A DNA stretch of 64,000 nt. It comes from Acidobacteriota bacterium. Its GTDB lineage: Bacteria; Acidobacteriota; CAIWXX01. Shown one piece after another: positions 3,419 through 26,779 of the stretch. Positions within the stretch are counted from its first letter, which is position 1. Every line of letters starts with the position of its first letter. A program made the translations under genes and the position numbers. The DNA is taken from positions 1 to 64,000 of the forward strand of contig JBFMAF010000029.1 in NCBI GenBank assembly GCA_040755995.1, written 5' to 3'. The notes under the pieces were generated by a model. It was not told the DNA's origin and searched no databases. It worked only from the letters and a program-made list of their open reading frames with translations.

Positions 3419-4900
3419 TTATCGCGTCGAAGGGGTGAACTTGATGACACGGTCGAGGACAAGCTCCGCGTAGGTAGCTCCCACCATGGTCGACTTCTCG
3501 AGGTAGGCGCGGCACGCCACGAGCATGCCCTGATCCTCGGGTATTCCGCCCTCCGAGCAATCGTACTCGACCTCGATGCAATAAGGATCGTTGCCGCAAT
3601 GGCCCGGCCGCATGATCTTCCAGGCGTAGAGGTCCTGAACATCGGAGTCGTGCGGGAGATAGTATGCCGCGCTGCCCGGGAATTCGTCGTTGCGGATAGA
3701 GGCTGCGCCCACCAAGAGATCCCCGCCGGTTACGGTGAAATTGGAGTAGCTTGCCTTGCCCATGGCAGCGTGATTGACGCCATAGACAATGACGAATTCA
3801 TCCTCTCCAAGAAGGAACTTGCTCTGAGGGCTGTTGCCTATGTAGGCGGCGTCCCGGTTGTCGCCCAGGCAGTCCTGATTCCTCTGAATGCAGTTGTAGC
3901 CTTCCATCAAGTTCGCGGTGGGCAGTTCCGCGGGCTCATATTCCGGCGTGTACCTGGCCAAGATGGCCCTCCTCAGATCTTCTACCACCGGCAGCAGATC
4001 CAGCTCCGTCCTCCCGGTCCCGCGCACTCGCAGTCTCGGTACCGGGTACGGATCGAGCTTGTTGGGCGGCGTGGCCTTCTTTGGAGTCAGTCGCCAGACG
4101 GTCCCGGGATTTTCTATGTAGGCATGGATGGCCGGCAGAGTCGGATCGTCCGTCGCCATGCGCACCGCAAACGTACAGCTATCGTCCGATTGGTCAATGC
4201 CGAGGTTGACGATCTCGGATGGAATGACATCGATGTTGATGATGCCTGCAGGGTATTCGGCCCGGAGAAGGGCTGCCTTCACGGTGGAGGCGATCTGCTT
4301 GTCGGATGTCGTGATGATGATCGTGTCCTTGGAGAACGGATCCTCAGCGGTCCCTGAGCACTTGATGGTCATGTTGTTGATCGTGTCGTGCAGGCTTGCA
4401 AAGACCTCGTGAGACCGCTTCTTCATCGACGGCAGAAGAGGGCACGGGGTTTCGGAAGGCGGAGTCCCAGCGCGATCGTAGAGGTAGCTCACAAAACCGA
4501 AGTACTTCATCTTCGGCGGCGTGATCCCGATGAGCACGATGGCCTCGTCGGCCCGCAGCCGCCAGCACATAGATCGGTTCGGTTGCTGTGCGCTCGAGAA
4601 ACTCTCAGCCAATGGATTCAACGCCGTCTGCCCTGGTGCGGCAGGTAGAATGTACACTCCATAAGTACTGGAGGCGTTGTTGCCCCAGCAGCTCGGCAGC
4701 TTGCAGCTGCAGCACATCGGGATGAGGTCCGGGAAACTGAGCGAGCCTTGGTTGTACTGGAACCCCTCCGACTTGATCTCGTCGAGGAACTTCTGGAGGT
4801 CGCCAGCATGTCCCTTGCCAGCGCCGAAGGAAAGGATAAGAGCCAAAACTAGTGATGATGCCCCCGCGAGACCCATGATTCGCCCGGCTTCTCTTTGCAT
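3419..4900 (-). CDS. secreted Cys-containing hypothetical protein
   Basis: 493-aa ORF, AGGAGG RBS, N-terminal signal peptide ending ..GKGHA, host-like codon usage. Confidence 0.8.
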   Translation of the reverse strand: MQREAGRIMGLAGASSLVLALILSFGAGKGHAGDLQKFLDEIKSEGFQYNQGSLSFPDLIPMCCSCKLPSCWGNNASSTYGVYILPAAPGQTALNPLAESFSSAQQPNRSMCWRLRADEAIVLIGITPPKMKYFGFVSYLYDRAGTPPSETPCPLLPSMKKRSHEVFASLHDTINNMTIKCSGTAEDPFSKDTIIITTSDKQIASTVKAALLRAEYPAGIINIDVIPSEIVNLGIDQSDDSCTFAVRMATDDPTLPAIHAYIENPGTVWRLTPKKATPPNKLDPYPVPRLRVRGTGRTELDLLPVVEDLRRAILARYTPEYEPAELPTANLMEGYNCIQRNQDCLGDNRDAAYIGNSPQSKFLLGEDEFVIVYGVNHAAMGKASYSNFTVTGGDLLVGAASIRNDEFPGSAAYYLPHDSDVQDLYAWKIMRPGHCGNDPYCIEVEYDCSEGGIPEDQGMLVACRAYLEKSTMVGATYAELVLDRVIKFTPSTR

Positions 4901-5134
4901 CTCAGATCCTCCTTGTAGTGGCGATTCTCAAGAAGGGACGCTCTTGCCCCTCCGACCATGCACAGAGCATTTCTCCCTCCAACCCGGTTTTCTCATGGCT
5001 GCGGCCTAGCATACTGTATCGTTTCCAGCTTGTATACCAGACAAGGCTATGGCCACCCTGTGCTCGGCAACTGTGGCAGAGTGATGTCTGCGTCTCACTG
5101 TCATGGCAAGGACAGGTGCAGAGTGTTCGAGAGA

Positions 5135-5563
5135 CTACTTCTGCCTGGGGCCAGGACGCGCGATGAAGCGGTGTGTGAAATCGGAATCGAGGGCGAGGGC
5201 CTCGCGTATGCCGAGCCTCTCCATCAGCACGAAGCTCGTGCAGTCAGTGAAGCTGTATTCCTTGTCCTGGTGGCGCTTGAAGTATTCGAATGCCTCACGT
5301 TCCTCCTCGGCCGTCACGTGATGGACGCGCGCGATCTTCTCGGCGAAGAGATACTCGCCAGCCTTCACCGCGGCCGCATGGATCCGCGGAGGCGTGGTGC
5401 GGATGAGCGTGATCGTCTCGCCGATGACGAGGTTGGTCGTGAAGAAAAGATCCTTGAGCCGACGGCGTCCACGGTAGGACTCGAACACATCTCGGACGCG
5501 CGCATGGTCGACGTCCTCCTCAGAGAAAAGCGGATAGAGGAAGCTCGTATCGAGGAAGATCAT
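5135..5563 (-). CDS. vapC: VapC-like PIN-domain toxin
   Basis: IFLDTS..SFTDCTSF.LM..ALDSDF PIN motifs; 4-bp overlap with the upstream gene. Confidence 0.9.
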   Translation of the reverse strand: MIFLDTSFLYPLFSEEDVDHARVRDVFESYRGRRRLKDLFFTTNLVIGETITLIRTTPPRIHAAAVKAGEYLFAEKIARVHHVTAEEEREAFEYFKRHQDKEYSFTDCTSFVLMERLGIREALALDSDFTHRFIARPGPRQK

Positions 5564-5787
5564 CGGTGATAGAGGTGCTTGTCGTGCTGTTCGCCGACGG
5601 GCTCCTTGAGCCCGCCCTTTATGAAGCCGATCAGCTCATCGGCTGCCTTCCAGCCCGTGGGATCGTCGTCATCCTCGGGGGCAGGCGTGGGGATCAGCAC
5701 CTCGACCTCCGCGTGCTCTTCGAGTCGGACTGGTTCGACCGGCTTGAAGACGCCGTCCTCGTAGATCGCCTTGACCGCTGTTGTCAT
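5560..5787 (-). CDS. DUF104/AF2212-like antitoxin
   Basis: VKAIYEDGVFKPVEPVRLEE..VEV signature; coupled to the PIN gene. Confidence 0.85.
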   Translation of the reverse strand: MTTAVKAIYEDGVFKPVEPVRLEEHAEVEVLIPTPAPEDDDDPTGWKAADELIGFIKGGLKEPVGEQHDKHLYHR

Positions 5788-5937
5788 CTCATCACCTGGA
5801 TATCGATTCTACCACCCCGCAGGTCTGTTCAGTAGCCTCCAGTTTGGCTGCATAGGGTATGCAACAGTTAGCACGGAACTGTCGTAGGGGGACGGATACG
5901 AAACCCTGTGAATTCCGACTCTGCCGGAGGCGATGCA

Positions 5938-6519
5938 ATGCGGGAATTCCGAGTAGCCTGGCGCGGGGTTGATCTCTACGATTCCATCGAAGACGACGGC
6001 ATGGCTCTCACGGCACGGGCCTGCCATCACATTGCCTGCGAGATCGTATCGTCTATCGGCAGTTCCATCAGGGACCACGTCCCCGAAGCGTGGCGGGAGG
6101 ACAGTTGGGCCTCACTCGAGTTTCAGAACCTCGGCCAAAGGGTTCGCTGCGTTCTGGCGCTGCGAGACGAGAACGACTACTCCGTCAGCGTCGGTTGCGT
6201 AAAGGGTATGTTTCGGTCACTGATAGGCCGAAAAGCGCCGCGTGAAGTCATGCATCAATGTATTGAGGACCTGGTTCCGCCGATTGCGCTGCGGGACAAG
6301 AGCGATCGATGGTGGCGGGAAGTCAAGGCGAGCGACGACTTCTTCGACCGGCTGTTCCAGGCCTTCTACGACAAGCTCGGGCTTCCTAATCTGATGAGGA
6401 AGACCGATTACCATGTCCTGGCCAGATTCATGCCCCCTGACGAGATCGATCAGGAAGTCACGAATGTACTGGACATGATCCTCGATGTTGCGAAGAGGGC
6501 GAAGGTGCCGCCAGCGTGA
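5938..6519 (+). CDS. hypothetical protein, probably chimeric
   Basis: GGAGG RBS; the C-terminal half (LVPPIAL..WW..KASDDF.DRLF..NLMRKTDYH) resembles the tail of AAA/OLD-type ATPase proteins and the N-terminal half looks unrelated. Confidence 0.45.
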   Translation: MREFRVAWRGVDLYDSIEDDGMALTARACHHIACEIVSSIGSSIRDHVPEAWREDSWASLEFQNLGQRVRCVLALRDENDYSVSVGCVKGMFRSLIGRKAPREVMHQCIEDLVPPIALRDKSDRWWREVKASDDFFDRLFQAFYDKLGLPNLMRKTDYHVLARFMPPDEIDQEVTNVLDMILDVAKRAKVPPA

Positions 6520-6694
6520 GTGGCTCGGCTCTGACAAAGGCGGCCGTTGGGGGTCGCATTGCCTGGGCCTGCGACTCCTCGGGACCGCAACTCCAATCGT
6601 GTCATCGACACGTGGGACGAGCGAGACTAGGTCCCGCGGGTCTTGGTGTGCCGCAGTCGATTCAATGGGCCGAGCCCGAGGAGGTGAGAATACG

Positions 6695-7129
6695 ATGCAA
6701 GACGATGAAATCCAAGAGGCGCCCCTCCGTGTCATTGAGGTCGCGGGGAGATGGAATGCGTTCGACGGGCCGGCGATCACATCAGATCTTCGCACCCACC
6801 GGACTCTCTGGCGGACCGCCATGCTTGTGGGACCACCGACTGAGGTGTTTCTCGACGCGGAAACACATGACCTCATTCGGGCCAACCATGACTACTCCGC
6901 TCATCGAGGAATACCCGATGTGCTATACGGCTTCGATACCCTCCAGCTCACCCCGGCGATTGGCTTGGAGGACGCACTTGAGAGCCTTGCCCGCAAATGG
7001 GGGGCAGACGACCAGCGCTGGATCGGTCTTCCCAGAGCGGCCTCAGCACTGGACTTCGAGGACGAAGCTGCATACGTCCGGGCTGGAGGAGACCCCAGAA
7101 GAGTGTTGCTTGAATTGTGGTGGGACTGA
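6695..7129 (+). CDS. hypothetical protein ending LELWWD
   Basis: GGAGGTG RBS; 144 aa. Confidence 0.6.
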   Translation: MQDDEIQEAPLRVIEVAGRWNAFDGPAITSDLRTHRTLWRTAMLVGPPTEVFLDAETHDLIRANHDYSAHRGIPDVLYGFDTLQLTPAIGLEDALESLARKWGADDQRWIGLPRAASALDFEDEAAYVRAGGDPRRVLLELWWD

Positions 7130-7339
7130 CCGAGAATTCCGGCTTCCGTCGGCTTGCCTCAGAACGCCGTGTCGCAACGGCTTCATGGGCGAGACCATCT
7201 GCCTGAACGATTCGACTGCCCTCGGTCATCCGTGACGAACTGGTGGTGAACCCTCCTCGGACCAACGAACGCAACTCAATAGAAGTCCCCAAGGTCAACA
7301 ACGGACTGCCCCAGGATTCCTTCAAGCGTCCCACGAAGC

Positions 7340-12616: not shown

Positions 12617-12716
12617 CCTCGGTCTACGAAGCCTACGGCGTTTAGCTTCTTGATCTCGTTGCAGTACCTCACGCAGAGGCCGCAGTGGATGCAGAATGAT
12701 GGGTCTTTTTCGAAGC
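12617..12716 (-). pseudogene. ~100-bp internal fragment of bamI (third copy)
   Basis: [36 protein letters not shown] near-identical to 24401-24500 and 17312-17411. Confidence 0.95.
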
Positions 12717-13410: not shown

Positions 13411-13592
13411 CCGGCCGCGGCCTGGGCTCTCCCGGCCTTCCCTCAAGCGACAGGATGAGCCTCGTTTCCTCGCGGCATACGAACGCGCTGGCGCTCCGTG
13501 TCCACCCCGATCTCTGCGATCATTCATGTTTCATCCCGATGATGCTTCGTGTATATTTTGACGGATGCGCTTGGAGTGGGAGGTCGAAGCGT

Positions 13593-14180
13593 ATGGGGAC
13601 ACAACTGGCGGTGCTGGAACAGGCGGGCCCGAAGACGAAGTGGCATCCATCTTCATTGTGCGCGCCCGAGCTCGCACCACTCCAGGTGCACGTCACCGAA
13701 CGGGGCGTCTTGTTCGGCGGCGACTGCCTCGATATCCTCCCTCTGATCCGCGACGCTGCCATTGACACCGTCTTTGCCGATCCCCCCTTCAATCTATCCA
13801 AGAAGTACGGCGCTGGGGTCAACGACGATCTGCCTGAGACGGACTACGTGGAATGGTGCAAGCTGTGGCTGAACCACTGCCGCAGGGTCTTGAAACCGGG
13901 CGGTTCGCTCTTCGTCTACAACCTGCCAAAGTGGAACGTCATCATCGGGAACCACTTGAGTGAGCAGGGTATGCTCTTCCGTCACTGGATCGCCGTCAGC
14001 GTGAAGTTGAGTCTGCCTCTCCCCGGTCGGCTCTATCCATCCCATTACAGTCTCCTTTACTTCACCAAGGGGAAGCCGAAGACATTCCGTAGGGTGCGCA
14101 CGCCCATACTCACCTGCCGCCATTGCGGGGGAGAGATACGCGACTACGGCGGTCACAGGGACGCCATGAACCCGAAGGGT
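13593..14180 (+). pseudogene. N4-C/N6-A DNA methyltransferase (BamHI-like), C-terminally truncated
   Basis: GDCL..FADPPFN..RVLKPGGS..RLYPSHYSLLY..CRHCGGEIRDYGG..MNPKG; no FxGxG SAM-binding motif follows. Confidence 0.85.
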
Positions 14181-14447
14181 TGGAGTCGCCGACCGAGGGA
14201 GGAAGACTCGCGCGCCCAGCGCCGCACACGGCGCAGCGGGCGGGACTGGATCGGCCGCTCAGAACCTCCCCGACGGCTGATCGCCACCGGATTCCCATAA
14301 AGACCAAGGAGGACTCCGATACTGCATGGATGTGGTTAGGTGCTATTCCAGCTGCCGTTGCCTGGAAGGCGCATTCAGGGCCTTCGCGTGGCGAGATTGG
14401 ATCGAACGATGTTGCAGAACGCCATGGTGGTTGGTTAGACTATACGT

Positions 14448-15140
14448 ATGGAATTGAATGACGAGACCTTGCCCCGCAGTCCACTGCAGTTGATGGTTGC
14501 GGCTGAACTCAAGCTTCTCTCCGATCTCGTTCCAGAGCGGCGAGAGGCACTGTGGGGAGTCTTACGGGACTTCGTCCCGAGCACTACATGGATACTCGAA
14601 GTGGAAGTCAATCGCTTGGCCGAGATGGCGGGGGTCGACCCGAGAGCCGTTCAAGCGGCGATGAGGCTCATCCGCAGCCTACCCGATGCGATCGAACAGG
14701 GGAAGCGTGACCCGAGTCAAATCGTGGCGAATACTGAGGCTTTCCTGCAATCCGCCGGGTTCAAGTCCACGGATATCTCCCTCGTACGCGATATCTTTGC
14801 GGCCTGTAAGGTACTGATACCTAGATTCGTCCGTATCGAAGAGATCGAGAAAGCCCTACCATGCTTCCGCACCTGTCATGTTGCATGCGATATCCGGTTA
14901 CTCCAGCAAACGGGCGACCCGAAAGGGCGTTATGGAACGGTCGCGATCGTGCGACTCGGGCTGGACGAGGGGCCGCTTGCCGGCTTTCAGTGCACCCGCG
15001 AATCGCTCGGTCTGCTGGTTGAGTGTCTTCGGAATGGTTTGAACACATTGACGGAGCTTGAGAGGGTTTTCGAGGCATTTGGAACGCGGTCGGTCGGGGC
15101 GAAGGATGAATCAACAGATCGCTCGTCGACAGAATCCTAG
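14448..15140 (+). CDS. hypothetical protein, candidate prokaryotic COMMD-like
   Basis: Helical N-terminal domain, then LP.F......DIR..TVAIVRL.LD.....FQ.TRESL..LV..L...L..L (three strands plus a long helix, COMM-domain-like). Confidence 0.6.
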   Translation: MELNDETLPRSPLQLMVAAELKLLSDLVPERREALWGVLRDFVPSTTWILEVEVNRLAEMAGVDPRAVQAAMRLIRSLPDAIEQGKRDPSQIVANTEAFLQSAGFKSTDISLVRDIFAACKVLIPRFVRIEEIEKALPCFRTCHVACDIRLLQQTGDPKGRYGTVAIVRLGLDEGPLAGFQCTRESLGLLVECLRNGLNTLTELERVFEAFGTRSVGAKDESTDRSSTES

Positions 15141-16221
15141 TAGGATGTGCTGGCGCTCCGGCAATGCCGAGCCACTCCGTCTGGGGTTGCCTGAGCTGGA
15201 TGAGCCTCCGAAGTGGCAATCGTGGGTTCCGCGTGCGTGCCGTGGAGAACTGGAGCACGGCGCCGTGGACGCCCCACCGAAGTCTAACGAATGGACTGGC
15301 CAACTCCTGCCCCTTAGGGAAAAGGGGCGTAGGGATTTGTGGGCGCATCTTATGACTTTTGTCGAATCGCTTACAGAGGCGGCTCCGGATGGAACGGGCG
15401 AGGCAGAAGAGGCAGATCGGCTTGTGCAGGATGGTCTTCTATGTGGGCGGATGGCTGCGAGTCGGCGAACGGCTGCGCGCCGCCTGGAACTTGCCATAAG
15501 GTCGAGGGCCTCCACGGCATCTCTTTGGCTGCACGCCTGCGCGCGATTGCGGGCCGATGAGGCGGCACCGTTCGTCGTCGAGGCGCTCCAGTCGCCTTGG
15601 TCTCGTGAGGTGCTTTCTGCTGCGGTCGACGCCGCGAGAGCTGTGATTCGTCACCCCGGAACGGCGTCAATGATAGCCCCTCTCTTGTGCAGGCGGGGTG
15701 AAGACCTACTCGGCGAAGCCCCTTTTGTTGCGGCGCGAGCCTTGATGGGCGCGATTATGCTCGCTGGAGAAGCGGGGTGGCCTTGGTTGGTTCAGCGGTT
15801 CGCCGCTTGGCCGCCACGACACCTCCAACCCGCCATGAGAATCGTGTCGCATCAACTCGCCCAGCGCCACCCGTATGAGCGGGGGAGCCTTCCGAATGCA
15901 AGTAGCCTGCGAGCAGAGGCCATCGCCTTGGAGGACCGTCTCAGGGGTCAGCCACAGGAAGAAGTCCGATTCGTTCGAGCTGACCTGCTGGAATTGGTCG
16001 CACTTCTTGGGCCAGGGGGAGCACTGGATGAAGTTGTTGATCGTTTGATAGGCGCGCATAGCACTGGGGACATGGTAGTACGGGCCGGCGCGGCCGCGGC
16101 GATGCGGCGATTGGGTCGCGAGCTGCCGGTTTCGATCGAACTTGTGATGCGTCATGAGGGGGGTCAGCAGCTGATGCGAGACGCGCTCTCAATGACGAGC
16201 CTGTCGCAGGCCAAGCAGTGA
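15106..16221 (+). CDS. all-helical HEAT/ARM-repeat-like protein
   Basis: Ala/Leu/Arg-rich amphipathic helices such as VVRAGAAAAMRRLG; overlaps both neighbours; start uncertain (15106 or 15145). Confidence 0.6.
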   Translation: MNQQIARRQNPSRMCWRSGNAEPLRLGLPELDEPPKWQSWVPRACRGELEHGAVDAPPKSNEWTGQLLPLREKGRRDLWAHLMTFVESLTEAAPDGTGEAEEADRLVQDGLLCGRMAASRRTAARRLELAIRSRASTASLWLHACARLRADEAAPFVVEALQSPWSREVLSAAVDAARAVIRHPGTASMIAPLLCRRGEDLLGEAPFVAARALMGAIMLAGEAGWPWLVQRFAAWPPRHLQPAMRIVSHQLAQRHPYERGSLPNASSLRAEAIALEDRLRGQPQEEVRFVRADLLELVALLGPGGALDEVVDRLIGAHSTGDMVVRAGAAAAMRRLGRELPVSIELVMRHEGGQQLMRDALSMTSLSQAKQ

Positions 16222-16874
16222 TTTGGCCGTCAGCCTCTCTGCACGAGACACCGATCAACCTCATAAGGGAGGGTTCGGTCGTCTTTCACATCGATGGCTT
16301 GGTCCAACATGTCGGCATAGCGGCGTTGTCTGCACTTCATGGGACTGAAATCCCGGTCTACGGAGCATCCCACAGAGACACGTTTCGGGAACACTGGGAC
16401 GGGAATAGGGATCCCTGGAAGGTCAGTGTCATAGGGTGGGCGGCGCGGGAGGATGGCGATCTGCTTAAGGCGCTGGTGTTGAAGGAGTGCGACCGCCTGC
16501 AGTCTCTAGTGATCGATGCTGGGTATAGATCGGAAGAACCCTGCCACTGGCAGATATGGCCGTGCTATAGGTTGGTCGAGGATTCCGACACAGCTACGGT
16601 GGTGTTTACGGGCTCATGTGCGGGTTTCGTCGAACACTGTTTTGAAAAGGCCGGCGTGGATCTCGTAGATGAGCGAGAGCTTCCCCTGACGCCTTGCGCA
16701 GATGGCGAACCAAGTTGCGTTCAGGTTCAATACCGGAAAGCGGGCGGTACGATCCGACGGCTCTACCCCTCCTACCAGATTCGTGCATTCCAGCTCGACG
16801 AATTCCCTTGGCAGCCCGATGAGCGATACAGGTGCTATCCTGAGCACTTCTACGAACAACCCACTCGTCCCTGA
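16218..16874 (+). CDS. candidate permuted papain-like (NlpC/P60, YiiX-like) amidase/peptidase
   Basis: GSVVF..QHVGI near the N-terminus and SCAGFVEHCFEKAGVDL later (His before Cys); GTGA coupling to the upstream gene. Confidence 0.6.
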   Translation: MIWPSASLHETPINLIREGSVVFHIDGLVQHVGIAALSALHGTEIPVYGASHRDTFREHWDGNRDPWKVSVIGWAAREDGDLLKALVLKECDRLQSLVIDAGYRSEEPCHWQIWPCYRLVEDSDTATVVFTGSCAGFVEHCFEKAGVDLVDERELPLTPCADGEPSCVQVQYRKAGGTIRRLYPSYQIRAFQLDEFPWQPDERYRCYPEHFYEQPTRP

Positions 16875-17136
16875 GCCTGCCCTTGGCACGGACTTCTGTC
16901 CTTCAGAAGCATGAGCATGTCTGGCCGTCAGAAGCGCAGAGGCCCCATGCACCTCAGCGATTCTGCGACGAGTCGAGCAAGTCGATGGCCCTGTGCTTGC
17001 AGAGCGACCGCGTGAACGCCGCTCCGCGCTCGATCCACGGCACCCTCCTACTAGCAAGTGCGCGGGTCGGGATGGGTAAGCTGTCTTGTCCTCGCGCGCT
17101 TCACGGCCGGTGAAGATAATGGTTGAGGGTAGCGGG

Positions 17137-17760
17137 TCAGGAGCGTGTCTTGGCTGACGCCGCCCTTGGAGCGGCCCGTGGAAAGGCGATGGCTTCAACT
17201 AGCACGAAGGCGGCTTGGAGGTAGGACGTGGGGCAGAGGGGGAAGCATTCTTTGCAGTTGTTGCATTCCTTCGAGGCTATCTCGGGGACGAAGCTGATCT
17301 CTTTTTTTATTCCTCGGTCGACGAAGCCTACGGCGTTTAGCTTCTTGACTTCGTTGCAGTACCTCACGCAGAGGCCGCAGTGAATGCAGAATGAGGGGTC
17401 TTTTTCGAAGCGGTCGCGGTCGGCGCCGTATTGTGCGGCCAGATCAACCAGCTGAGGCGAGTCCGGGGCATGGGCTAGTAGCAGCTCCAGCACGGTCTTG
17501 CGAATCCGGTCGACGCGGTCGGACCTCGTCCTGATGTTGAGGTCTGCCTCTACCGGGTGAACACAAGAGGCCACTAGCTTGGTCTGGCCGCGGGATTCCG
17601 CTTCTACGATGCAGATCCTGCAGCCGCCGTAGGGTTCCAGTTTGTCATGGTGACAGAGCGTGGGTATGGATATGTGCGCGCTCCTGGCGGCGTCCAGGAC
17701 GGTCATCCCTTCGGTTGCCCGGATTTCCTTGCCATCAATCCGCAGATGGACGTCGCTCAT
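17137..17760 (-). CDS. bamI: second, intact copy of BamI (2Fe-2S/4Fe-4S protein)
   Basis: 207 aa; 22 substitutions by my count versus 24226-24849; all Cys motifs retained. Confidence 0.9.
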
Positions 17761-18527
17761 CTTCCTTGCTCTTTCTGAGGATCATTCTCTTGTCTTCGGG
17801 GATCGGAGGCGGGACGGGGACTCCCGAGATCTTCTTCACGGCGGCGAAGCGCGGCGGACAGACCTCGATGCAGGTTCCGCAATTGGTGCATTTCTCCTGG
17901 TCGATTACGTGGATCTTGTTCTTCGCGCCGTCGATTGCGTTCGTTGGGCACTTGCGCAGGCAGATCAGACATGCTTTGCACTTTTCTGGATCGATGTAGT
18001 ACGCGATCAGATCTTTGCTGGAGAGGGCGGGGCATCGCTTCTCCTTGATATGCGCTTCGTACTCGTCTCTGAAGTAGCGCAGCGTGCTCAAGAACGGGTT
18101 CGGAGCAGCCACCTCGGCACGCACGGCAATAGGGTGACTCTCGCTCACGAATAGAGGGACACTCTGGGAACACGATTTGGCACGAGCCATCACAGCCCCG
18201 CTGCCCGCAACGTCTTGATCCCAAGCGGGCCTGTCCACCGTTTCTCTCGCGCCACGGCGCGGCGCGGTATGCAATCAGCCACCTTTCCCGATATCCGTCT
18301 GGCTCTCTTCTCGTGAGCATCCCCCTGGCATTTCTGGTGAGCGTCGAACGGCTTGCCCTGCGCGCAGAGTGAAGCTGCCGAGGCCGTCTCCGACAAAGGA
18401 TCCGTGGTCTCCATCTCGCCCCCCTCGCCTTCCCCCTGGTGATTCCCTCTGTGCATCATCTGCCTCAGGCCTTCCCGGCCTGGGACGCATTTCCCGCATG
18501 ATTCCTCCGTGAGGAATTCGATGAAGT
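17735..18527 (-). pseudogene. 3' portion of a second bamH, split by a ~240-bp insert and partly frameshifted
   Basis: 17735-18108 matches 24824-25197; ~18350-18527 is a degraded match to 25200-25380 (FLTEESCGKCVP). Confidence 0.9.
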
Positions 18528-19060
18528 GTGTCCCTCCGGCGAGACTGCGCCGATGATGGTGCCCGGCCGAAGGCCGGTCGGCTGGCGGAGTGGCGGTTCG
18601 GCCTTCATGATTGCTGGGGGTGGACGGGGCCAAACGGCGCGACGGCTCTCGGAGTGATCAGGCGGCTTTCAGGGCTGGTAGCTCCGCCAGCGTTTGGCGG
18701 TAGTTCCAGGGAAGCCAGGCGGAGGGGTTCTTCCTGAGGGCGTATTCATGGCGCTGAAGTTCGGTGAGGTAGTCGAACGGGTTGACGCCGGAACGGGTGG
18801 CAGTGTGAATCAGTGTCATCAGGACGTCGCCCACGGCCGCTCCGTGGCTGTTCTTGTAGAACATTGAGGCCTTGCGATGCAGCACACACCTCTTGATGAG
18901 CTGCTCGCAGAGGTCGTTGCTCATCGGGGCACTGGGAATCTTGGTGAAGCTAGTGAGTTCGGTCCAGTGTCTATGCAGGTAGGCGATCGCCTTGCCCAGA
19001 CCGCTGTTGGGCTCGGCTTTCTTGGTCTCGATGAGATCGGTGGCCCAGCGCTTAAGTGCC
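18528..19060 (-). mobile_element. IS66-family remnant (transposase C-terminus and probable element end)
   Basis: EPNSGLGKAIAYL..HW.EL..F..P..PMSND.CE..IK..VL.RK.S.FYK..GA..GD..MTLI.T....VNPFDYL..WLPWNY (stop 18658); GTGTCCCTCCGG at 18528 abuts the bamH fragment. Confidence 0.85.
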
Positions 19061-19117
19061 TTTCGTGCCTATCATGGTATCGGCAGTGTGCATGCAACTG
19101 ATGCCAAGGAGCCAATC

Positions 19118-22111
19118 ATGCTCACACTCCGGATCACTCAGACCGCCGAAGGCAACGACCAGTATCGCGTCGAAACCGCGCTCGACGAAAACGGACGCAG
19201 GTCGGGCCTCGCCACCAGCCGCTTTCTATTCGCGTTCACCGATCAAGACCGCGAGGGGATCCGCTGGTATTTGGAAGATTATCTAGAGTACCCGCTCGAT
19301 CCTGCGCCCAAGATTGCGACGCGCATCGAACGACGCATCGCCGACATTGGCACGGAACTGTTCAGCGCTGTGTTTGATTCGAGCCCGACGGCACAGCGTT
19401 TGTGGGCGCGCCTGCAGCCGAGCCTCAACGACACGCGCCTCGAAATCATCACCGGGATTCGCGAGGCGACATCTATCCCATGGGAACTCCTCCGCGATCC
19501 ATTGACCGGCACGCCGCTCGCGCTCGATGCCCGCGCGTTCGTCCGTTCACAGACCGTCCCGGCGCGGCCCCCACGCCCGGTCGACAAGTCGCCGCTCGAC
19601 GCAGGCGAGAGCAGAATCCGCATCCTGCTCATCATCTGCCGCCCGCGCGGGCGCGACGATGTGCCGTTCCGTTCCGTCGCGAGCCGGATACTCCGGAGCC
19701 TGAGCCGGGATGCTCGCAATATCGTCCAGCTCGACGTGCTGCGCCCGCCCACGTTCGAGCAGCTGGGGAAGACGCTACGCGCCGCCAAGCGCAGCGGGCA
19801 ACCATATCACGTCGTCCACTTTGACGGGCACGGCATATATGCGAACATCCCCGAGCCCGACCAACTGGCCGCGTTTCTAAAATCGCTGGGGGTCTTGACG
19901 CTGGGAAAGCCCCGCCCCGGCGAGCACGGCTATGTACTGTTTGAAAACCCGCAGGCTCGAGAGAACACGGAACTGATAGATGGCGATCGCCTGGGCAAGC
20001 TGATCGTGGAAACCGGCGTGCCTGTGCTGGTCCTCAACGCCTGCCAGTCGGCCTTTGCCCAAGCGCCTGAAGCACCCACGAGCGCCGGTCAAAGCACGCA
20101 AGACCAGGTGCGTGCGTTCGGCTCGCTGGCGCAAGAGGCGATGAACGCGGGCGTGGCTGGTGTGGTGGCGATGCGTTATGTACTCCACGTCGAGACGGCC
20201 AAACGGTTTGTGGCCGACCTGTACGACGGGCTACTCCGCGGCGAGACGCTCGGCGGCGCGGTGACGTTCGCGCGCAAACAACTGGCCGATGACCCGCAGC
20301 GCGAGATTGGCTACAAGCCCATTGTGTTGCAGGACTGGCCTGTGCCGATTGGGTACGAGGCCGGGCCCATCGCGCTCTTTCCGCCGGTTAACCATGGTGC
20401 AGCTGCGGCGCCCCGACGCATCACGGTGGACGCGCCAGCGCGCGTATCGCTGGAGGGGGTGGCGCCGCCACCCGACGTGGGCTTTTTCGGGCGCGATGAA
20501 ACGCTCCTGGCGCTCGACCGCGCGTTCGATACCCAATCCATCGTGCTGCTGAACGGCTACGCCGGGAGCGGTAAGACGACAACGGCGGCGGAATTCGCTC
20601 GCTGGTATGTGCAGACGGGCGGCGTTCAGGGGCCCGTGCTCTTTACCACGTTCGAGCAGTACCGCCCACTCCCGCGCGTGCTGGATGTGGTCGGGCACGT
20701 TTTTGAGCACATGCTTGAGCAGAATCATGTCAACTGGCTCACACTGGACAATGCAGCGCGCATAGAAATGACGTTGCTCATCCTAAGGCAAGTCCCCGTT
20801 CTGTGGATTTGGGACAACGTGGAACCCGTAGCAGGCTGGGGCGGCCTGCCGTCCGCGTGGAGCGTCATCGAGCAGAAGGAATTGGCCGACTTCTTGCGCG
20901 CAGCGCGAGAAACCGGATCCAAATTCCTACTCACCTCGCGGCGCGAGGAGCGCGCGTGGCTCGGCGATCTGCCGCGCCGGGTGAAGCTGCCGCCCATGCC
21001 CATGCAAGAGCGCGTCCAATTGGCGCGCGCGCTGGCGGACAGGCTGGGGCGGCGCATGACAGAGGTGGAGGACTGGCAGCCGCTGTTGAACTACACCGCG
21101 GGCAACCCGCTGACGCTCACAGTGGTGGTGGGCCAGGCCCTGCGCGATGGACTCAGGACGAGGGAGGAGATTGAGGCCTTTGTGACTAGACTGCGCGCGG
21201 GCGAGGCGGTGTTTGATGATGAAGCGAGTGAGGGCCGCAGTCGTAGCCTGGGGGCGTCGCTGGCGTATGGCTTCGCCAGCGCGTTCACGGAGGCCGAGCG
21301 GAAGCGGTTGGCGCTTCTCCACCTGTTCCAGGGCTTTGTGTATGTGGGTACACTTGAGGCGATGGGCGACCCGGAAATCGGCAACCTGCCCGAGGTGCAT
21401 GGCATTTCGCGCGAAGCTGGCATGGCCCTGCTAGCCCGTGCTTCCGAAATCGGCATGCTCACGTCGCACGGTGGCGGCCTTTATTCCATACAGCCGGCGC
21501 TGCCGTGGTTTTTTCGGTGCCTGTTTGAACAGCACTACGGCGCCACTCCGAGACGTCGCCCAACTGACGAAGTAGCGCACTATCTCACTTCCGCGGCTAG
21601 ACTTTACCAGGAGGCGCCAGACCTGCTGCCCCCGAACGCCGCGAATGATGTGGCCATCACGCACAACCAGCTTGGCATCATCTATCTTGATGCCGGTGAC
21701 GTCGAACGCGCGTTGATACACTTTCGGGAGGCCGCTCGGAGCCACGACTCAGCGGGCAACCTTCATGCTGCGGCACAGACCCGCTATAACGTCGCCGTCG
21801 CCCTTGTGAGCACCGCCCGCCTAACAGATGCGCTCGATTATGCCGAGGCCGCATTGCAGACCTTCTCCACCTTTGGCGACCGCGCGGGGGATCAGCTAGA
21901 AATGACGCAGAGGCTGGTTGAGGAGATTCGGCAACTGATGTCACACAGACAGTCGGGAGCGCCGGCATCACTGGGCGTCAGTACTCGCCATATTCATCCA
22001 GTCCGTATGTCCCCGAAAAGACGCGATCTCTCCGGCTGCGATCCGCCTCCGCATGCTGTCGGCAAGAAGGACCTGAACGATGTGAACGCCTGGATGGCCT
22101 GGAACCCCTGA
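19118..22111 (+). CDS. CHAT (caspase-like) + STAND NTPase + TPR protein, probably internally deleted
   Basis: VVHFDGHG and VLNACQS catalytic motifs; FFGR, Walker A GYAGSGKTT, Walker B LWIWDNVE, GNPLTL; only a few TPRs. Confidence 0.85.
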   Translation: MLTLRITQTAEGNDQYRVETALDENGRRSGLATSRFLFAFTDQDREGIRWYLEDYLEYPLDPAPKIATRIERRIADIGTELFSAVFDSSPTAQRLWARLQPSLNDTRLEIITGIREATSIPWELLRDPLTGTPLALDARAFVRSQTVPARPPRPVDKSPLDAGESRIRILLIICRPRGRDDVPFRSVASRILRSLSRDARNIVQLDVLRPPTFEQLGKTLRAAKRSGQPYHVVHFDGHGIYANIPEPDQLAAFLKSLGVLTLGKPRPGEHGYVLFENPQARENTELIDGDRLGKLIVETGVPVLVLNACQSAFAQAPEAPTSAGQSTQDQVRAFGSLAQEAMNAGVAGVVAMRYVLHVETAKRFVADLYDGLLRGETLGGAVTFARKQLADDPQREIGYKPIVLQDWPVPIGYEAGPIALFPPVNHGAAAAPRRITVDAPARVSLEGVAPPPDVGFFGRDETLLALDRAFDTQSIVLLNGYAGSGKTTTAAEFARWYVQTGGVQGPVLFTTFEQYRPLPRVLDVVGHVFEHMLEQNHVNWLTLDNAARIEMTLLILRQVPVLWIWDNVEPVAGWGGLPSAWSVIEQKELADFLRAARETGSKFLLTSRREERAWLGDLPRRVKLPPMPMQERVQLARALADRLGRRMTEVEDWQPLLNYTAGNPLTLTVVVGQALRDGLRTREEIEAFVTRLRAGEAVFDDEASEGRSRSLGASLAYGFASAFTEAERKRLALLHLFQGFVYVGTLEAMGDPEIGNLPEVHGISREAGMALLARASEIGMLTSHGGGLYSIQPALPWFFRCLFEQHYGATPRRRPTDEVAHYLTSAARLYQEAPDLLPPNAANDVAITHNQLGIIYLDAGDVERALIHFREAARSHDSAGNLHAAAQTRYNVAVALVSTARLTDALDYAEAALQTFSTFGDRAGDQLEMTQRLVEEIRQLMSHRQSGAPASLGVSTRHIHPVRMSPKRRDLSGCDPPPHAVGKKDLNDVNAWMAWNP

Positions 22112-22240: not shown

Positions 22241-23134
22241 CTACGGGGTATCCGCTTCTCGTTTCTCCTCCCTCGGCCTGAGATCTTCGATGTAGGAGAA
22301 ACTCCAGATCTGGTGTCCCTCCCGATATGAACGGTGGCGGAGACGGCAGGCCAGATTCGCCAGGTCAGACAGCTCCTGACGTGCCGGACGATCCATGCCT
22401 CCTATCCTCGCACCCCACACTAGCAGGTAGGCGAGGATGTCCGCGACCTGGATGGCGGTGGTCAGCTCGCTATGAACGAAGAACGGCTCCGGGATGACTT
22501 GGGCAGACCTGGCCCTTCCCTTCGCCGTCTCCCGAAAATACCGCGCCATCTGGTCTATGAGAACGTGGCACTGTGATCGCTCCAACTCATCGAACACAAC
22601 CAGGCCCAAGGGTCGATCTGCCTGATCATCCAAGAAATAGAAGAATCGCTCGAACAGGTAGGCATAGTCCTTCCGCAGGAAATCCCCGTGTGGGCGGGGC
22701 GCGTCTCTATCAACGATGCTGGCAAGGGCCTTGCAGCCGTATTGGCTGCAGAGCTTGAGGACACGCTCCACAAACGAGATCTTGGCCTGGGCCAAGGCGG
22801 TGAGCTCAGCCCTTGTGACGGCCCCCTGCTTCGTGCCCGACTCATCAGAGTCACCGCGTTGCAAACATCCCAGCGCAAGCCTGGTCCGATCAGGTGGGTC
22901 GATCGGGGGCCTTTGCGAGGCCAGCCGAAAGGTCTTCCTCTTGAGGAGCCTCCGGCCCTTCAACTCTCCGCTTTCACGAGACACCCGACGACCGAAGAAC
23001 TCAATCTCCGCACTTTGAAGATCGCAAACGAAGTTCCAGAGGCTGCGGTCATGAATGCACACCCCCGCCAATACCTCATACGGTGAGTCCCGGTGATCGT
23101 GACCGCTATCGTCTACGAAGAGGAAGTAGCTCAT
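22241..23134 (-). CDS. DUF3800-domain protein
   Basis: YFLFVDDSG..YEVLAG..ELKG..VVFDE..IQVADILAY. Confidence 0.85.
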   Translation of the reverse strand: MSYFLFVDDSGHDHRDSPYEVLAGVCIHDRSLWNFVCDLQSAEIEFFGRRVSRESGELKGRRLLKRKTFRLASQRPPIDPPDRTRLALGCLQRGDSDESGTKQGAVTRAELTALAQAKISFVERVLKLCSQYGCKALASIVDRDAPRPHGDFLRKDYAYLFERFFYFLDDQADRPLGLVVFDELERSQCHVLIDQMARYFRETAKGRARSAQVIPEPFFVHSELTTAIQVADILAYLLVWGARIGGMDRPARQELSDLANLACRLRHRSYREGHQIWSFSYIEDLRPREEKREADTP

Positions 23135-23165
23135 TGCGTATGGCAACTCCGCTGTGCCGGGGGAA

Positions 23166-23726
23166 TCATGGCTTGTCCTGCACAAGATCCATCGGCAGCG
23201 AATCCAAGAACGTTTTGAGACGTTCGACCTCCGCCTTTCGTAAATCCCGGGGCAACTTCAACCGCGCGGTACAGTCTGGTCGCAAGGGAAAGGGGTATTC
23301 GATCGTGTTCGACGACACAGGCTCCACAGGATCGATCTCCCCGGCCCTCTCGGACTCCGGCACGGGATACTGCGCCGAGCCCGTCCTGCCTCGTGGCACG
23401 CCCCTCCGCGCCCCCGGCTTGCCCCTGAACCGCCATCCTGCCGGGCTCTTCGCGTAGTCCAGATAGATCCCAACTGCTTGGCGGAATCGCTGTGAATACA
23501 CTCCCAGGGTCTTCGGGGAGATCCCCTGGGAGCTCCTGTTGTGGAAACGAGTCAGAACATGCTCGACATCCATCGCAGAGACATCCTGCTGTTCGAACCC
23601 ATCAACGCCAGCAGTTACACGGCGAACAGCCGAGAGGTATGAGCTGGCGGTCGGTTTCTTGATCAAACCCTTCTCTACTGCCCAAGGCCAAAAATCCACC
23701 AGCGCCTTCCCTGATATCTGTGCCAT
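23166..23726 (-). CDS. hypothetical protein with an integrase core-binding-like helical N-terminus
   Basis: TASSYLSAVRRV..SPKTLGVY.QRFRQAV, linker, YPFPLRPD..LPRDL..EVERL; GGAGG RBS; no catalytic recombinase domain. Confidence 0.7.
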   Translation of the reverse strand: MAQISGKALVDFWPWAVEKGLIKKPTASSYLSAVRRVTAGVDGFEQQDVSAMDVEHVLTRFHNRSSQGISPKTLGVYSQRFRQAVGIYLDYAKSPAGWRFRGKPGARRGVPRGRTGSAQYPVPESERAGEIDPVEPVSSNTIEYPFPLRPDCTARLKLPRDLRKAEVERLKTFLDSLPMDLVQDKP

Positions 23727-23783: not shown

Positions 23784-24225
23784 GAGTCAATACACAACGA
23801 TTGCACGCCTCATTGCATGGACATTGGAATGCCCCGGTGCACCGTGCGGATCAATGAATTCAAGAGCCAGGGAATGGTACATCCTATTCGGAGGTGTTTC
23901 TGAGTGATGCTGACATCGCCGGTCACATCAGCACCTTGGTTGTACACCTCTGAATGCAGACACTCGAACTGACTTGCCCAATGTTCACATTGCGCACCCC
24001 ATTGGGCCACCGTGCTCGGTGCGATGCTATTGTCGGTCAGCGGCACCGGACCCTCTGTGGCGCGAGGGCCGTCGATGAGCCTGAGGACTCCCAGAACCAG
24101 TATGTGCCCTCGCGAATCTGCTCGCCGCAGAGCGGTCCTATGCCGGAGCTCGGGCAGCAACGAACAAGGGAGCGCGGAAGGCTCCTTGATCGGGAGTAGG
24201 GGAGACGCGGGAGCAGTCGGGGCAG

Positions 24226-24849
24226 TCAGGCGACCGTCTTGCCTGACGCCGGTCGTGGAGAGGCCGATGGAAAGGCGAGCGCTTCGAGGAGGACGAAGGC
24301 GGCTTGGAGGTAGGAGGTGGGGCAGAGGGGGAAGCATTCTTTGCAGTTGTTGCATTCCTTGGAGGCTATCTCGGGGATGAAGCTGATCTCCTTGCGGATG
24401 CCGCGGTCGACGAAGCCTACGGCGTTTAGCTTCTTGATCTCGTTGCAGTACCTCACGCAGAGGCCGCAGTGGATGCAGAATGAGGGGTCTTTTTCGAAGC
24501 GGTCGCGGTCGGCGCCGTATTGTGCGGCTAGATCGACTAGCTGAGGGGAGTCTGGGGCGCGCGCTAGTAGCAGCTCCAGTACGGTCTTGCGAATGCGGTC
24601 GACGCGGTCGGACCTCGTCCTGACATTGAGGTCTGCCTCTACCGGGTGAACACAGGACGCCACTAGCTTGTTCTGGCCGCGGGCTTCCGCTTCTACTATG
24701 CAGATCCTGCACCCGCCGTAGGGTTCCAGTCTTTCGTGCTGACACAGGGTGGGTATGGATATGTGCGCGCCTCTGGCGGCGTCCAGGACGGTCATGCCCT
24801 CGCTGGCACGGACGTCTTTGCCGTCAATCCGCAGATGGACGTCGCTCAT
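24226..24849 (-). CDS. bamI: class II benzoyl-CoA reductase subunit BamI (NuoG-N-like FeS protein)
   Basis: IPTLC..GGCRIC..ASC 2Fe-2S motif; CIHCGLC and CNNCKEC ferredoxin motifs; last gene of the operon. Confidence 0.85.
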   Translation of the reverse strand: MSDVHLRIDGKDVRASEGMTVLDAARGAHISIPTLCQHERLEPYGGCRICIVEAEARGQNKLVASCVHPVEADLNVRTRSDRVDRIRKTVLELLLARAPDSPQLVDLAAQYGADRDRFEKDPSFCIHCGLCVRYCNEIKKLNAVGFVDRGIRKEISFIPEIASKECNNCKECFPLCPTSYLQAAFVLLEALAFPSASPRPASGKTVA

Positions 24850-26779
24850 CTTCCTTGCTCTTTCTGAGGATCATTCTTCTGTCTTCCGGGATGGGAGGGG
24901 GCACCGGTACGCCGGAGAGCTTCTGCACCGCGGCGAACCTGGTCGGGCAAACCTCCAGGCACGTTCCGCAGTTGGTGCATTTCGCCTGGTCGATGACGTG
25001 GATCTTGTTCTTAGCGCCGTCGATCGCGTTCGTTGGGCACTTCCTCAGGCATATCAGGCACGCTTTGCACCTGTCCGGATCGATGTAGAACGCGATCAGC
25101 TCTTTACACGAGAGGGCAGGGCATCTCTTCTCTTTGATGTGGGCCTCGTACTCGTCTCTGAAGTAGCGCAGCGTGCTCAGGAACGGGTTTGGAGCTGTCT
25201 TGCCTAGGGCGCAGAGGGAGGCCTCCTGGGCTGTCTCGGAGAGAAGCTCCAGGGTCTCGATGTCGCCCTCCCTGCCCTTGCCCTTCGTGATCCTGTCTAA
25301 TATCCTGTGCATCTGCCGCAATCCTTCGCGACACGGGACGCACTTCCCGCAGCTCTCTTCCGTCAGGAACTCGATGAAGTACCTGGCGACATCTACCATG
25401 CACGTGTCTTCGTCCATCACTATCATGCCGCCCGAGCCCATCATCGAGCCGGCCTTCGTCAGCTCGTCGAAGCCTACTTCCAGGTCCAGCAGCTTTTCCG
25501 GAATACACCCGCCCGACGGTCCGCCGGTCTGCATCGCCTTGAACTTCTTCCCGCCGGGTATTCCACCGCCTATCTTGTAGACTACGTCCCTCAACGGAAT
25601 GCCCATCGGCACTTCGACTAAGCCGGTGTTGGCGATCTTGCCCACCAGGGAGAAGATCTTCGTGCCCTTGCTGCCATCGGTGCCGATCGAGGCGAACTCG
25701 GCGGCTCCCTTGTTGATGATCAGCGGGACATTGGCCCACGTCTCCACGTTGTTGATGTTCGTCGGCTTGTCCCAGAGCCCCTTCACCGCCGGATACGGCG
25801 GCCGCGGCCTGGGCTCGCCCGGCCTCCCCTCCAGCGACAGGATGAGAGCTGTCTCCTCGCCGCAGACGAACGCGCCGGCGCCTCGATGCACCTTTACGTG
25901 GAAGTCGAATCCGGAGCCGAGGATGTTCTTCCCCAACAGGCCGCGCTCCTCAGCCTGCCTCAGCGCAATGCCAAGGTTCTTCACCGCCAGCGGATACTCC
26001 TGGCGGACGTAGACGAAGCCATGTTGAGATCCGATCGCATACGCACCGATCAGCAGCCCCTCGATCACGCTGTGCGGATTGCCTTCCATGAGAGACCTGT
26101 CCATGTAGGCCCCTGGGTCTCCCTCGTCGCAGTTCACAACGACGTACTTCGGGTCGCCTGGGGCATTGCGAGCGATCTCCCATTTCACACCGGTGAGAAA
26201 ACCGGCTCCACCTCGCCCGCGCAGCTTCGCTTCCTTCACCTCCGCAATGATCTGCTCCGGCGTCATCTCGAACAGCGCCTTGACCAGCGCCCGGTAGCCG
26301 CCGATCGCTATGTAGTCTTCGATGCTCTGGGGATCGATCTTCCGGTTGGGGCCGAAGACGAGCCGTCTCTGATTCTTGTAGAACGGGATGTCGGATTCCC
26401 TGGTCGTCTTCTCGCCCGTGACTTGGTGAACGTAGAGCAGGCGATCTATGATCTTGTTCTCATTCAAGGCCGCGGAGGCGATCTCGGGAACGTCTCCGGG
26501 CGCCACCTGCAGATAGCACGTCTCCTCGGGGTCGATCACAACGATCGGACCTCTTTCGCAAAAGCCGTGACAACCGGTGCTCCTGAGACCCACCTTGTCC
26601 TTCAGGCCCTGCTTTTCGAATTCGTCCTTGAAGGCTGAGACCACGTCAGTCGCGCCGCATGCAAGGCAGCCGGTTCCTGCGCATATCGAAACGCATGGCG
26701 AGTTGGGGTCTCTTCGGGATGATAGCTCTTGCGAGAGCTTCGCCAGCTCTTCGGGCGAGCTCAGGCGTGGCACTGTCAT
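24824..26779 (-). CDS. bamH: BamH, NuoF-like FMN/NADH-binding subunit
   Basis: LRGRGGAGF, NCDEGDPG, GAGAFVCGEETAL, ESCGKCVPC and a C-terminal 2x4Fe-4S domain. Confidence 0.9.
   Translation of the reverse strand: MTVPRLSSPEELAKLSQELSSRRDPNSPCVSICAGTGCLACGATDVVSAFKDEFEKQGLKDKVGLRSTGCHGFCERGPIVVIDPEETCYLQVAPGDVPEIASAALNENKIIDRLLYVHQVTGEKTTRESDIPFYKNQRRLVFGPNRKIDPQSIEDYIAIGGYRALVKALFEMTPEQIIAEVKEAKLRGRGGAGFLTGVKWEIARNAPGDPKYVVVNCDEGDPGAYMDRSLMEGNPHSVIEGLLIGAYAIGSQHGFVYVRQEYPLAVKNLGIALRQAEERGLLGKNILGSGFDFHVKVHRGAGAFVCGEETALILSLEGRPGEPRPRPPYPAVKGLWDKPTNINNVETWANVPLIINKGAAEFASIGTDGSKGTKIFSLVGKIANTGLVEVPMGIPLRDVVYKIGGGIPGGKKFKAMQTGGPSGGCIPEKLLDLEVGFDELTKAGSMMGSGGMIVMDEDTCMVDVARYFIEFLTEESCGKCVPCREGLRQMHRILDRITKGKGREGDIETLELLSETAQEASLCALGKTAPNPFLSTLRYFRDEYEAHIKEKRCPALSCKELIAFYIDPDRCKACLICLRKCPTNAIDGAKNKIHVIDQAKCTNCGTCLEVCPTRFAAVQKLSGVPVPPPIPEDRRMILRKSKEDERRPSAD

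Follow-up and report, generated by a model that had tools for sequence, protein, structure and literature searches.

What do a COMMD-like protein, a helical protein, and a papain-fold enzyme accomplish together when a bacterium encodes them as one compact unit? The question is raised by three open reading frames (ORFs) within a 64,000-nucleotide stretch of an Acidobacteriota genome (contig JBFMAF010000029.1, positions 1 to 64,000; hereafter, the window). An earlier note, made from the DNA letters, had described the three as intact, overlapping, and co-oriented, and this layout is confirmed: all lie on the + strand at 14448-16874. The parts belong to known folds; we found no description of their combination. 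We propose, with a probability of roughly 0.4, that the cassette is a tripartite toxin-antitoxin-like module: the enzyme ORF3 would supply the toxic activity, ORF2 would inhibit it, and the COMMD ring would serve as a chaperone or sensor that can be exchanged. The features needed for the argument are as follows.

14448-15140, + strand: ORF1, prokaryotic COMMD-like protein, 230 amino acids
ORF1, about residues 12-139: helical HN domain (predicted structure)
14874-15077, + strand: ORF1 COMM domain (residues 143-210), predicted dimer- or ring-forming part
15106-16221, + strand: ORF2, helical HEAT/ARM-like protein, proposed ORF3 inhibitor or adaptor, 371 amino acids from the ATG
15106-15315, + strand: ORF2 N-terminal tail (first 70 residues), variable, likely unstructured, candidate docking site for the COMMD ring
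16218-16874, + strand: ORF3, permuted papain-like NlpC/P60 enzyme (YiiX/PPNE fold), 218 amino acids, GTG start
16308-16310, + strand: ORF3 His31, predicted catalytic histidine (His in 40/41 family members, one gap)
16617-16619, + strand: ORF3 Cys134, predicted catalytic cysteine (Cys in 41/41; starts helix H134-144 of the model)

The ORF2 start is uncertain (ATG at 15106, in-frame TTG at 15058, or ATG at 15145), and the ORF3 start overlaps the ORF2 stop by 4 nucleotides. All three proteins appear soluble by hydropathy, with best 19-residue scores of 1.4-1.5 and no segment of transmembrane strength. Each gene is single-copy in its own 7.7-Mb assembly (99.84% complete). GC content at third codon positions is 0.62-0.65 in the cassette genes versus 0.73-0.77 in three neighboring genes.

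Domain composition of the cassette

ORF1 is a prokaryotic COMMD-like protein with an HN + COMM architecture. The COMM-like pattern first noticed in its sequence (LPCF..DIR..AIVRL..FQ, followed by a long helix) is upheld by both a structure model and a sequence profile. In the model, the COMM domain comprises strands E143-153, E162-172, and E178-182 and helix H184-210, and it aligns to residues 151-223 of 8esd_F with a root-mean-square deviation of 2.8 over 72 residues. The best fold match of the ORF1 model is 9q6a, which profile A7 (ORF1 included) also matches at E 1.8e-12. Scored by itself against the other family members, ORF1 reached only 7.1 bits, a value attained by 0/200 shuffles. In prokaryotic COMMD-like proteins, dimers assemble into a homo-oligomeric ring with 8 or 10 subunits (PMC13392464), and by analogy ORF1 is predicted to form such a ring.

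ORF3 has no Pfam or NCBIfam match, but its assignment as a permuted NlpC/P60 protein is supported by a structure model, in which the PPNE core fold is present, and by a sequence profile. Segment 112-161 of the ORF3-family profile matches residues 25-67 of 9ubf, and segment 11-44 matches residues 78-113, as expected for a circular permutation. The His-then-Cys order holds as well: HVGI (His31) precedes GSCAGFVEHCFEKAG (Cys134), and these two residues are the predicted catalytic pair. A G-D-type motif before the first strand retains G in 33/41 members and D in 23/41. Tyr117 aligns near the NlpC/P60 active-site tyrosine, in an unstable column holding Tyr in 20/41 and gaps in 13. Additional features are an invariant Cys141 and a C-terminal RLYPxYQIxAF motif. 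The ORF3 alignments left out P0022 and P0023 (repeat proteins, spurious) and fragments P0027, P0045, and P0046; fragment P0010 was left out of alignment A5. The papain-like fold suggested earlier is supported, although ORF3 could be an amidase, lipase, or acyltransferase instead of a protease.

ORF2 was called a HEAT-type solenoid, and weak though consistent sequence matches lean in that direction. Against Pfam HEAT_2, ORF2 scores 17.5 bits (E 0.0053), below the cut-off of 27.7. Sub-threshold HEAT, Arm, or Adaptin matches occur in 4/8 proteins from the same slot at other loci, and a profile of the ORF2-slot genes matches designed ARM repeats at E 5e-4. These proteins diverge quickly (13-27% identity). 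In leave-one-out scoring over nine aligned slot-mates, seven beat all 200 shuffles, including ORF2 itself (12.4 bits; 0/200 shuffles reach the score).

The N-terminal tail of ORF2 is poorly aligned among relatives and has a FoldIndex of -0.059 over its first 70 residues versus 0.222 for the last 100. In 18/18 second-slot proteins tested, the FoldIndex of the first 70 residues lies below the median of 0.193 for a control set (n = 286) that had been filtered by composition. We infer that the COMMD ring may dock on this tail.

Recurrence of the three-gene order

Should the three genes be regarded as a unit? Twelve other ORF3-family loci were examined, and the genes do co-occur elsewhere, as a neighborhood check proposed in the earlier note had asked: COMMD gene, helical gene, and enzyme appear in the window's order, in bacteria unrelated to one another, at 4/12 (L002, from a Pirellulaceae genome, L003, L007, and L008), with genes overlapping or nearly abutting. 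At four more loci (L004, L006, L010, and L017), the helical gene and enzyme occur without a COMMD gene, the upstream DNA being visible. L009 and L011 end inside the helical gene, L005 is a lone 3' fragment, and L018 has a distant enzyme together with another type of helical gene; its COMMD gene was matched at E 8e-9 by a profile built without it. Overall, a large helical gene lies directly upstream of the ORF3-type gene at 10/12. That this pair occurs with or without COMMD is what a core of two genes, extended in some cases by a third, would give.

The surrounding region is a mosaic of fragments, as would be expected had the three genes been thrown together by accident. This explanation is refuted because four other loci repeat the order, their genes likewise overlapping or nearly touching, although the ORF3 and COMMD-like families are found in only 1-2% of the genomes searched; we regard chance adjacency as having almost no probability. 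The closest ORF3 relatives are 40-53% identical and include one from Pyxidicoccus sp. MSG2 (WP_267860887.1). Profile searches, which miss distant members, found the ORF3 family in 0/60 and 0/400 genomes of its own phylum (overlapping sets) and only 2 new members among 400 genomes around G061.

COMMD-led cassettes with other partners

Searching in reverse, the COMMD profile matched 7/401 genomes (two being seeds) and 6/301 (one seed, one false). L044, in which the matched gene encodes the RNase P protein, was dropped from the count. Nine further COMMD-like genes were obtained, and 9/9 lead three tightly packed, co-oriented genes of the following types.

L029, L030: COMMD, helical protein, distant permuted papain (matching the ORF3 family at hhalign 96%)
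L031, L032, L043: COMMD, short helical protein, DUF7689
L041, L042: COMMD, DUF5678-like protein, retropepsin-like protein (L042 by Pfam below cut-off; L041 by motif only)
L033, L040: COMMD, 'WDG' protein, A11 family

A11, a small unassigned family, may be ADP-ribosyltransferase-like, judging by a motif, and DUF7689 may be papain-like, judging by its Cys/His motif; DUF7689 gave no match to a solved structure and no profile match to ORF3. At least four families fill the middle slot behind COMMD, many members being only 160-240 amino acids long. Comparison of the HEAT family with three further middle-gene families showed them not to be homologous to it. In a COMMD tree of 15 rows, the cargo types are interleaved rather than sorted into clades, and one DUF7689 locus groups with three HEAT-papain loci (support 97/98); 8/12 inner branches of this tree are unresolved.

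These third genes raise another reading, which makes the COMMD ring itself a substrate or effector, switched on or off when the protease encoded behind it cleaves it. Bacterial proteases cleave gasdermins, which offers an analogy, and the third gene is protease-like at 7/9 reverse-search loci (DUF7689 counted only by its Cys/His motif). This arrangement nevertheless seems improbable: the same enzyme pairs stand behind an unrelated first gene, of the NCBIfam family TIGR04255, or alone, and 2/9 third genes are not protease-like.

Exchange of the first gene

The first-slot gene is exchangeable, with COMMD, TIGR04255, or another gene standing before shared partner pairs. TIGR04255 precedes three of the same pairs as COMMD (L019, L045, and L051/L054-L057) but shows no detectable homology to it (hhalign 0.2%). 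The distant papain type was found at 8 loci: three behind COMMD, one behind TIGR04255 (a Rhizobium plasmid), and four behind a different first gene. At L020, L021, L062, and L063, the first genes match neither the COMMD nor the TIGR04255 profile.

Our TIGR04255 sample comprised 14 loci from 121 genomes. One carries the DUF7689 pair, and the WDG protein occurs at five (E < 0.01) plus one weakly. A family with a QGD..TQxCD motif, possibly MazF-fold-like, ends 6/14 cassettes (L046-L050 and L058), and 1/14 is different; the window's own pair of HEAT protein and ORF3-family enzyme occurs at 0/14. The genome that contains the window (G000) itself encodes two TIGR04255-led cassettes ending in A11, at C9:41393-43145 (- strand) and C52:91355-93196 (+ strand), with both A11 matches ~500 bp downstream of the TIGR04255 matches. 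A SecB-like nature of TIGR04255 was considered, and no support for it was found.

Proposed function

A two-gene core whose last gene encodes an enzyme, joined to an optional, exchangeable, oligomer-forming gene, is the logic of toxin-antitoxin-chaperone (TAC) systems, and we therefore favor ORF3 as the effector, ORF2 as the inhibitor, and COMMD as the chaperone or sensor. In such a module, the papain-fold ORF3 would be toxic, and the helical ORF2 would bind and restrain it. The COMMD ring of ORF1, acting as an exchangeable chaperone or sensor, would keep ORF2 functional. Were a phage protein or a stress to occupy the ring, ORF2 would be destabilized and ORF3 released; growth would then stop once the freed enzyme cleaved some host target at an amide or ester bond. 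In favor of the proposal, we count the pair core, the recurrence of the cassette, the exchange of the first slot, the tree, the signs of mobility, a setting rich in toxin-antitoxin genes, and the tails.

The roles originally suggested, a HEAT sensor and a COMMD scaffold, are not favored because the helical-enzyme pair occurs without COMMD at four loci and COMMD leads unrelated pairs. These roles would belong to a signalosome-like defense, with a HEAT protein that recognizes a phage protein, a COMMD ring that provides the assembly platform, and an enzyme activated through recruitment instead of release from inhibition. ORF2 is large, repeat-like, and fast-diverging, as sensors are, and some loci lie near defense genes (Avs4 at L006, helicase pieces at L002, and a ubiquitin-like operon with DUF4297 at L019). 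Set against the four loci with HEAT protein and enzyme alone, and against a middle slot filled by at least four families, three without homology to the HEAT family, we consider it unlikely.

Several observations weigh against the toxin-antitoxin-like proposal. The pair formed by the window's own HEAT protein and ORF3-family enzyme is present at 0/9 reverse-search loci, and the co-occurrence rests on members at 26-48% identity (best segments) rather than on the closest relatives at 40-53%. The second-slot gene of L002 fails the homology test (38/200 shuffles reach its score), and that of L011 is marginal. Filtering of the FoldIndex controls by composition weakens the tail result, and a low FoldIndex also marks the tails of the four HEAT proteins from loci that lack COMMD (their starts are uncertain). 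The long branch of ORF1 (2.8) makes its position in the COMMD tree unsure. In ORF3, the third triad position, in a column chosen by spacing rather than from coordinates, is Gly49; 25/41 members have His, Glu, or Asp there. Defense-type neighbors are clear at only 2/17 loci (L002 and L006), most loci lying among housekeeping genes. Liu et al. (PMC13392464) report no complex predicted by AlphaFold between COMMD-like proteins and neighboring gene products in Myxococcota, Chlamydia, or Halobacteria. Finally, the chaperone gene of TAC systems comes last whereas COMMD is first at every triad seen, and the TAC antitoxin tail is C-terminal whereas that of ORF2 is N-terminal.

Beyond the particular assignment of roles, involvement in conflict or defense of some kind is probable. 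A wider generalization, doubtful but possible, is that COMMD rings of bacteria provide sensing or chaperoning for a broad, undescribed class of three-gene conflict systems. Its members would place COMMD or TIGR04255 first, then an adaptor or antitoxin, then an enzyme that can be swapped, be it a permuted papain, DUF7689, a retropepsin, or another. If this were true, the ring of the eukaryotic Commander complex would descend from a bacterial immune or toxin-control component.

Mobility and genomic context

Across the data set, the loci show the pattern of small mobile modules rather than of strict defense-island residents. Two small plasmids of 6.6-6.9 kb, from Acinetobacter and Psychrobacter, have as their main cargo a related three-gene cassette that ends in a distant permuted papain (L020:4572-6643 and L021:3350-5224). 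L030 lies beside primase and VapE genes, L031 lies beside a tRNA, and L062 and L063 follow an apparent type I methyltransferase (read by eye). The context scan covered 98 flanking ORFs from 17 loci through a crude filter and gives raw counts without a background control. It places L006 next to Avs4, helicase pieces of the Druantia/DISARM type at L002, and L019 beside the ubiquitin-like operon and DUF4297; other PADLOC matches near the loci are generic, with kinases at both L017 and L031 and a single match to mad3/mad8 at L040.

At L004 (3273-7664), a HEAT protein bears a zf-HC2 anti-sigma-type finger; an ORF3 relative, which is split, and a CHAT gene follow it, and a broken sigma-factor-like fragment precedes it (by eye). 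Regulation outside defense would accommodate such a locus: ORF3 would remove or transfer an acyl group on a lipid-amino-acid or peptide, the activity proposed for YiiX/BcPPNE, ORF2 would control it, and COMMD would be a scaffold for its localization. The closest solved folds are suggested to be lipid-amino-acid amidases (PMC3142127); at L004, the finger-bearing HEAT protein has a CHAT gene next to it, and many loci sit among housekeeping genes. A conflict system would explain the very patchy distribution, the extreme divergence, the carriage on small plasmids, and the swapping with unrelated enzymes better than a housekeeping role would, and we hold the regulatory reading to be rather improbable.

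Neighbors resembling type VI secretion systems have been reported for COMMD-like genes in Myxococcota (PMC13392464). The cassette could be imagined as a secreted-toxin unit, in which COMMD would be the adaptor for loading, ORF3 would be exported as an effector resembling TseH, and ORF2 would be the immunity protein. We think this very improbable: the cassette's own genome gave no VipB (PF05943) match, ORF3 carries no extra N-terminal domain, and the window ORFs scanned include no secretion gene family.

Within the window, the first 24 kb hold many genes of toxin-antitoxin families (BrnT twice, PIN/RHH, DUF5615/DUF433, AbiEi, and Uma2). The other genes there had been described as mostly broken. 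A half methyltransferase, duplicated Fe-S oxidoreductase fragments, and an IS66 remnant agree with that description; a CHAT-STAND-TPR ORF and a DUF3800 ORF nearby are both open. The features concerned, with further genes of the region, are listed below.

13455-14300, + strand: N6/N4 methyltransferase directly upstream of ORF1, breaking off roughly halfway through its model; by eye, L048 has a close relative of full length upstream of its TIGR04255 gene
24.2-27.3 kb: resident Fe-S oxidoreductase/hydrogenase-like operon, pieces of which recur between toxin-antitoxin genes
12617-12716, 17136-18106, 24225-25195, 13412-13494, 25799-25881: Fe-S operon pieces repeated within the window (971-bp copy at 88% identity; 100-bp piece three times at 95-97%; 83-bp piece at 87%)
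18992-22111, + strand: 1039-amino-acid protein with CHAT protease, STAND-type ATPase, and TPR parts, the TPR part looking short; no full-length PADLOC match
22241-23185, - strand: DUF3800 gene
23166-23726, - strand: 186-amino-acid ORF without a family match, directly upstream of and overlapping the DUF3800 gene
3422-7235: four ORFs of 203-493 amino acids with no Pfam match at E 0.001, two of them overlapping at 5908-7235

Homology-assisted insertion, recurring at a single site, may account for the Fe-S repeats, as may an assembly problem, and the 186-amino-acid ORF with its DUF3800 neighbor is a possible second small cassette.

Comparison with known systems

The earlier view that the combination is not a named system holds within our coverage: ORF1-3 have no match in PADLOC-DB 2.0.0 at E up to 1, 22 related proteins gave only two weak unrelated PADLOC matches, and we found no paper describing the cassette, most subscription journals being outside the literature covered. 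Prokaryotic COMMD-like proteins themselves are already published, with their function stated as unknown (Liu et al., Nat Commun 2026, PMC13392464; PDB 9q6a, 9q6c), and an Asgard COMMD is reported in PMC12962969. The bacterial COMMD-like genes in PMC13392464 number 250, with MBK5214510 among them. ORF1 shares their HN + COMM architecture and their occurrence as one gene per genome. A three-gene cassette with a helical partner and an enzyme is not described in the portions of PMC13392464 available: operons, peptidases, defense, and phage go unmentioned in its main text, as do peptidase, protease, HEAT repeat, and NlpC in four supplementary files, which may not include all dataset tables. The cassette thus gives prokaryotic COMMD-like rings, solved in 2025-26, a consistent genetic context and a first testable job. 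The material for such tests consists of three small soluble genes, a predicted catalytic Cys/His pair, and variants occurring in nature that either have or lack the COMMD gene.

With the YiiX/BcPPNE enzymes (PMC3142127), ORF3 shares the fold, the His-before-Cys order, the Cys at a helix start, and the G-D-type motif. It differs in being only 11-14% identical and in having Gly at the third triad position; PPPDE1 likewise has no third triad residue (PMC3142127). The ORF3 family is set apart further by the invariant Cys141, the RLYPxYQIxAF motif, and its constant pairing with a helical gene wherever the locus is whole.

TIGR04255 three-gene cassettes, for which we found no paper, have the same kind of first slot and three shared partner pairs, without homology between the first genes. 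TAC systems such as HigBAC and CmdTAC provide a precedent, in which the chaperone stabilizes the antitoxin and senses a phage protein (10.1101/2024.02.24.581848). The shared features are the three-gene logic, a third component that is oligomeric and works with more than one two-gene core, and a middle gene with a likely unstructured tail. The third component is SecB-like in TAC systems and has a COMMD fold here, where the effector is papain-like. The cassette is therefore not a TAC member, because its fold is not that of SecB and its gene order is reversed. If it nonetheless proves TAC-like or antiphage, it would extend this group by a third component other than SecB and by an effector of papain fold, tie in the TIGR04255 family, and bear on the origin of the ring in the eukaryotic Commander trafficking complex.

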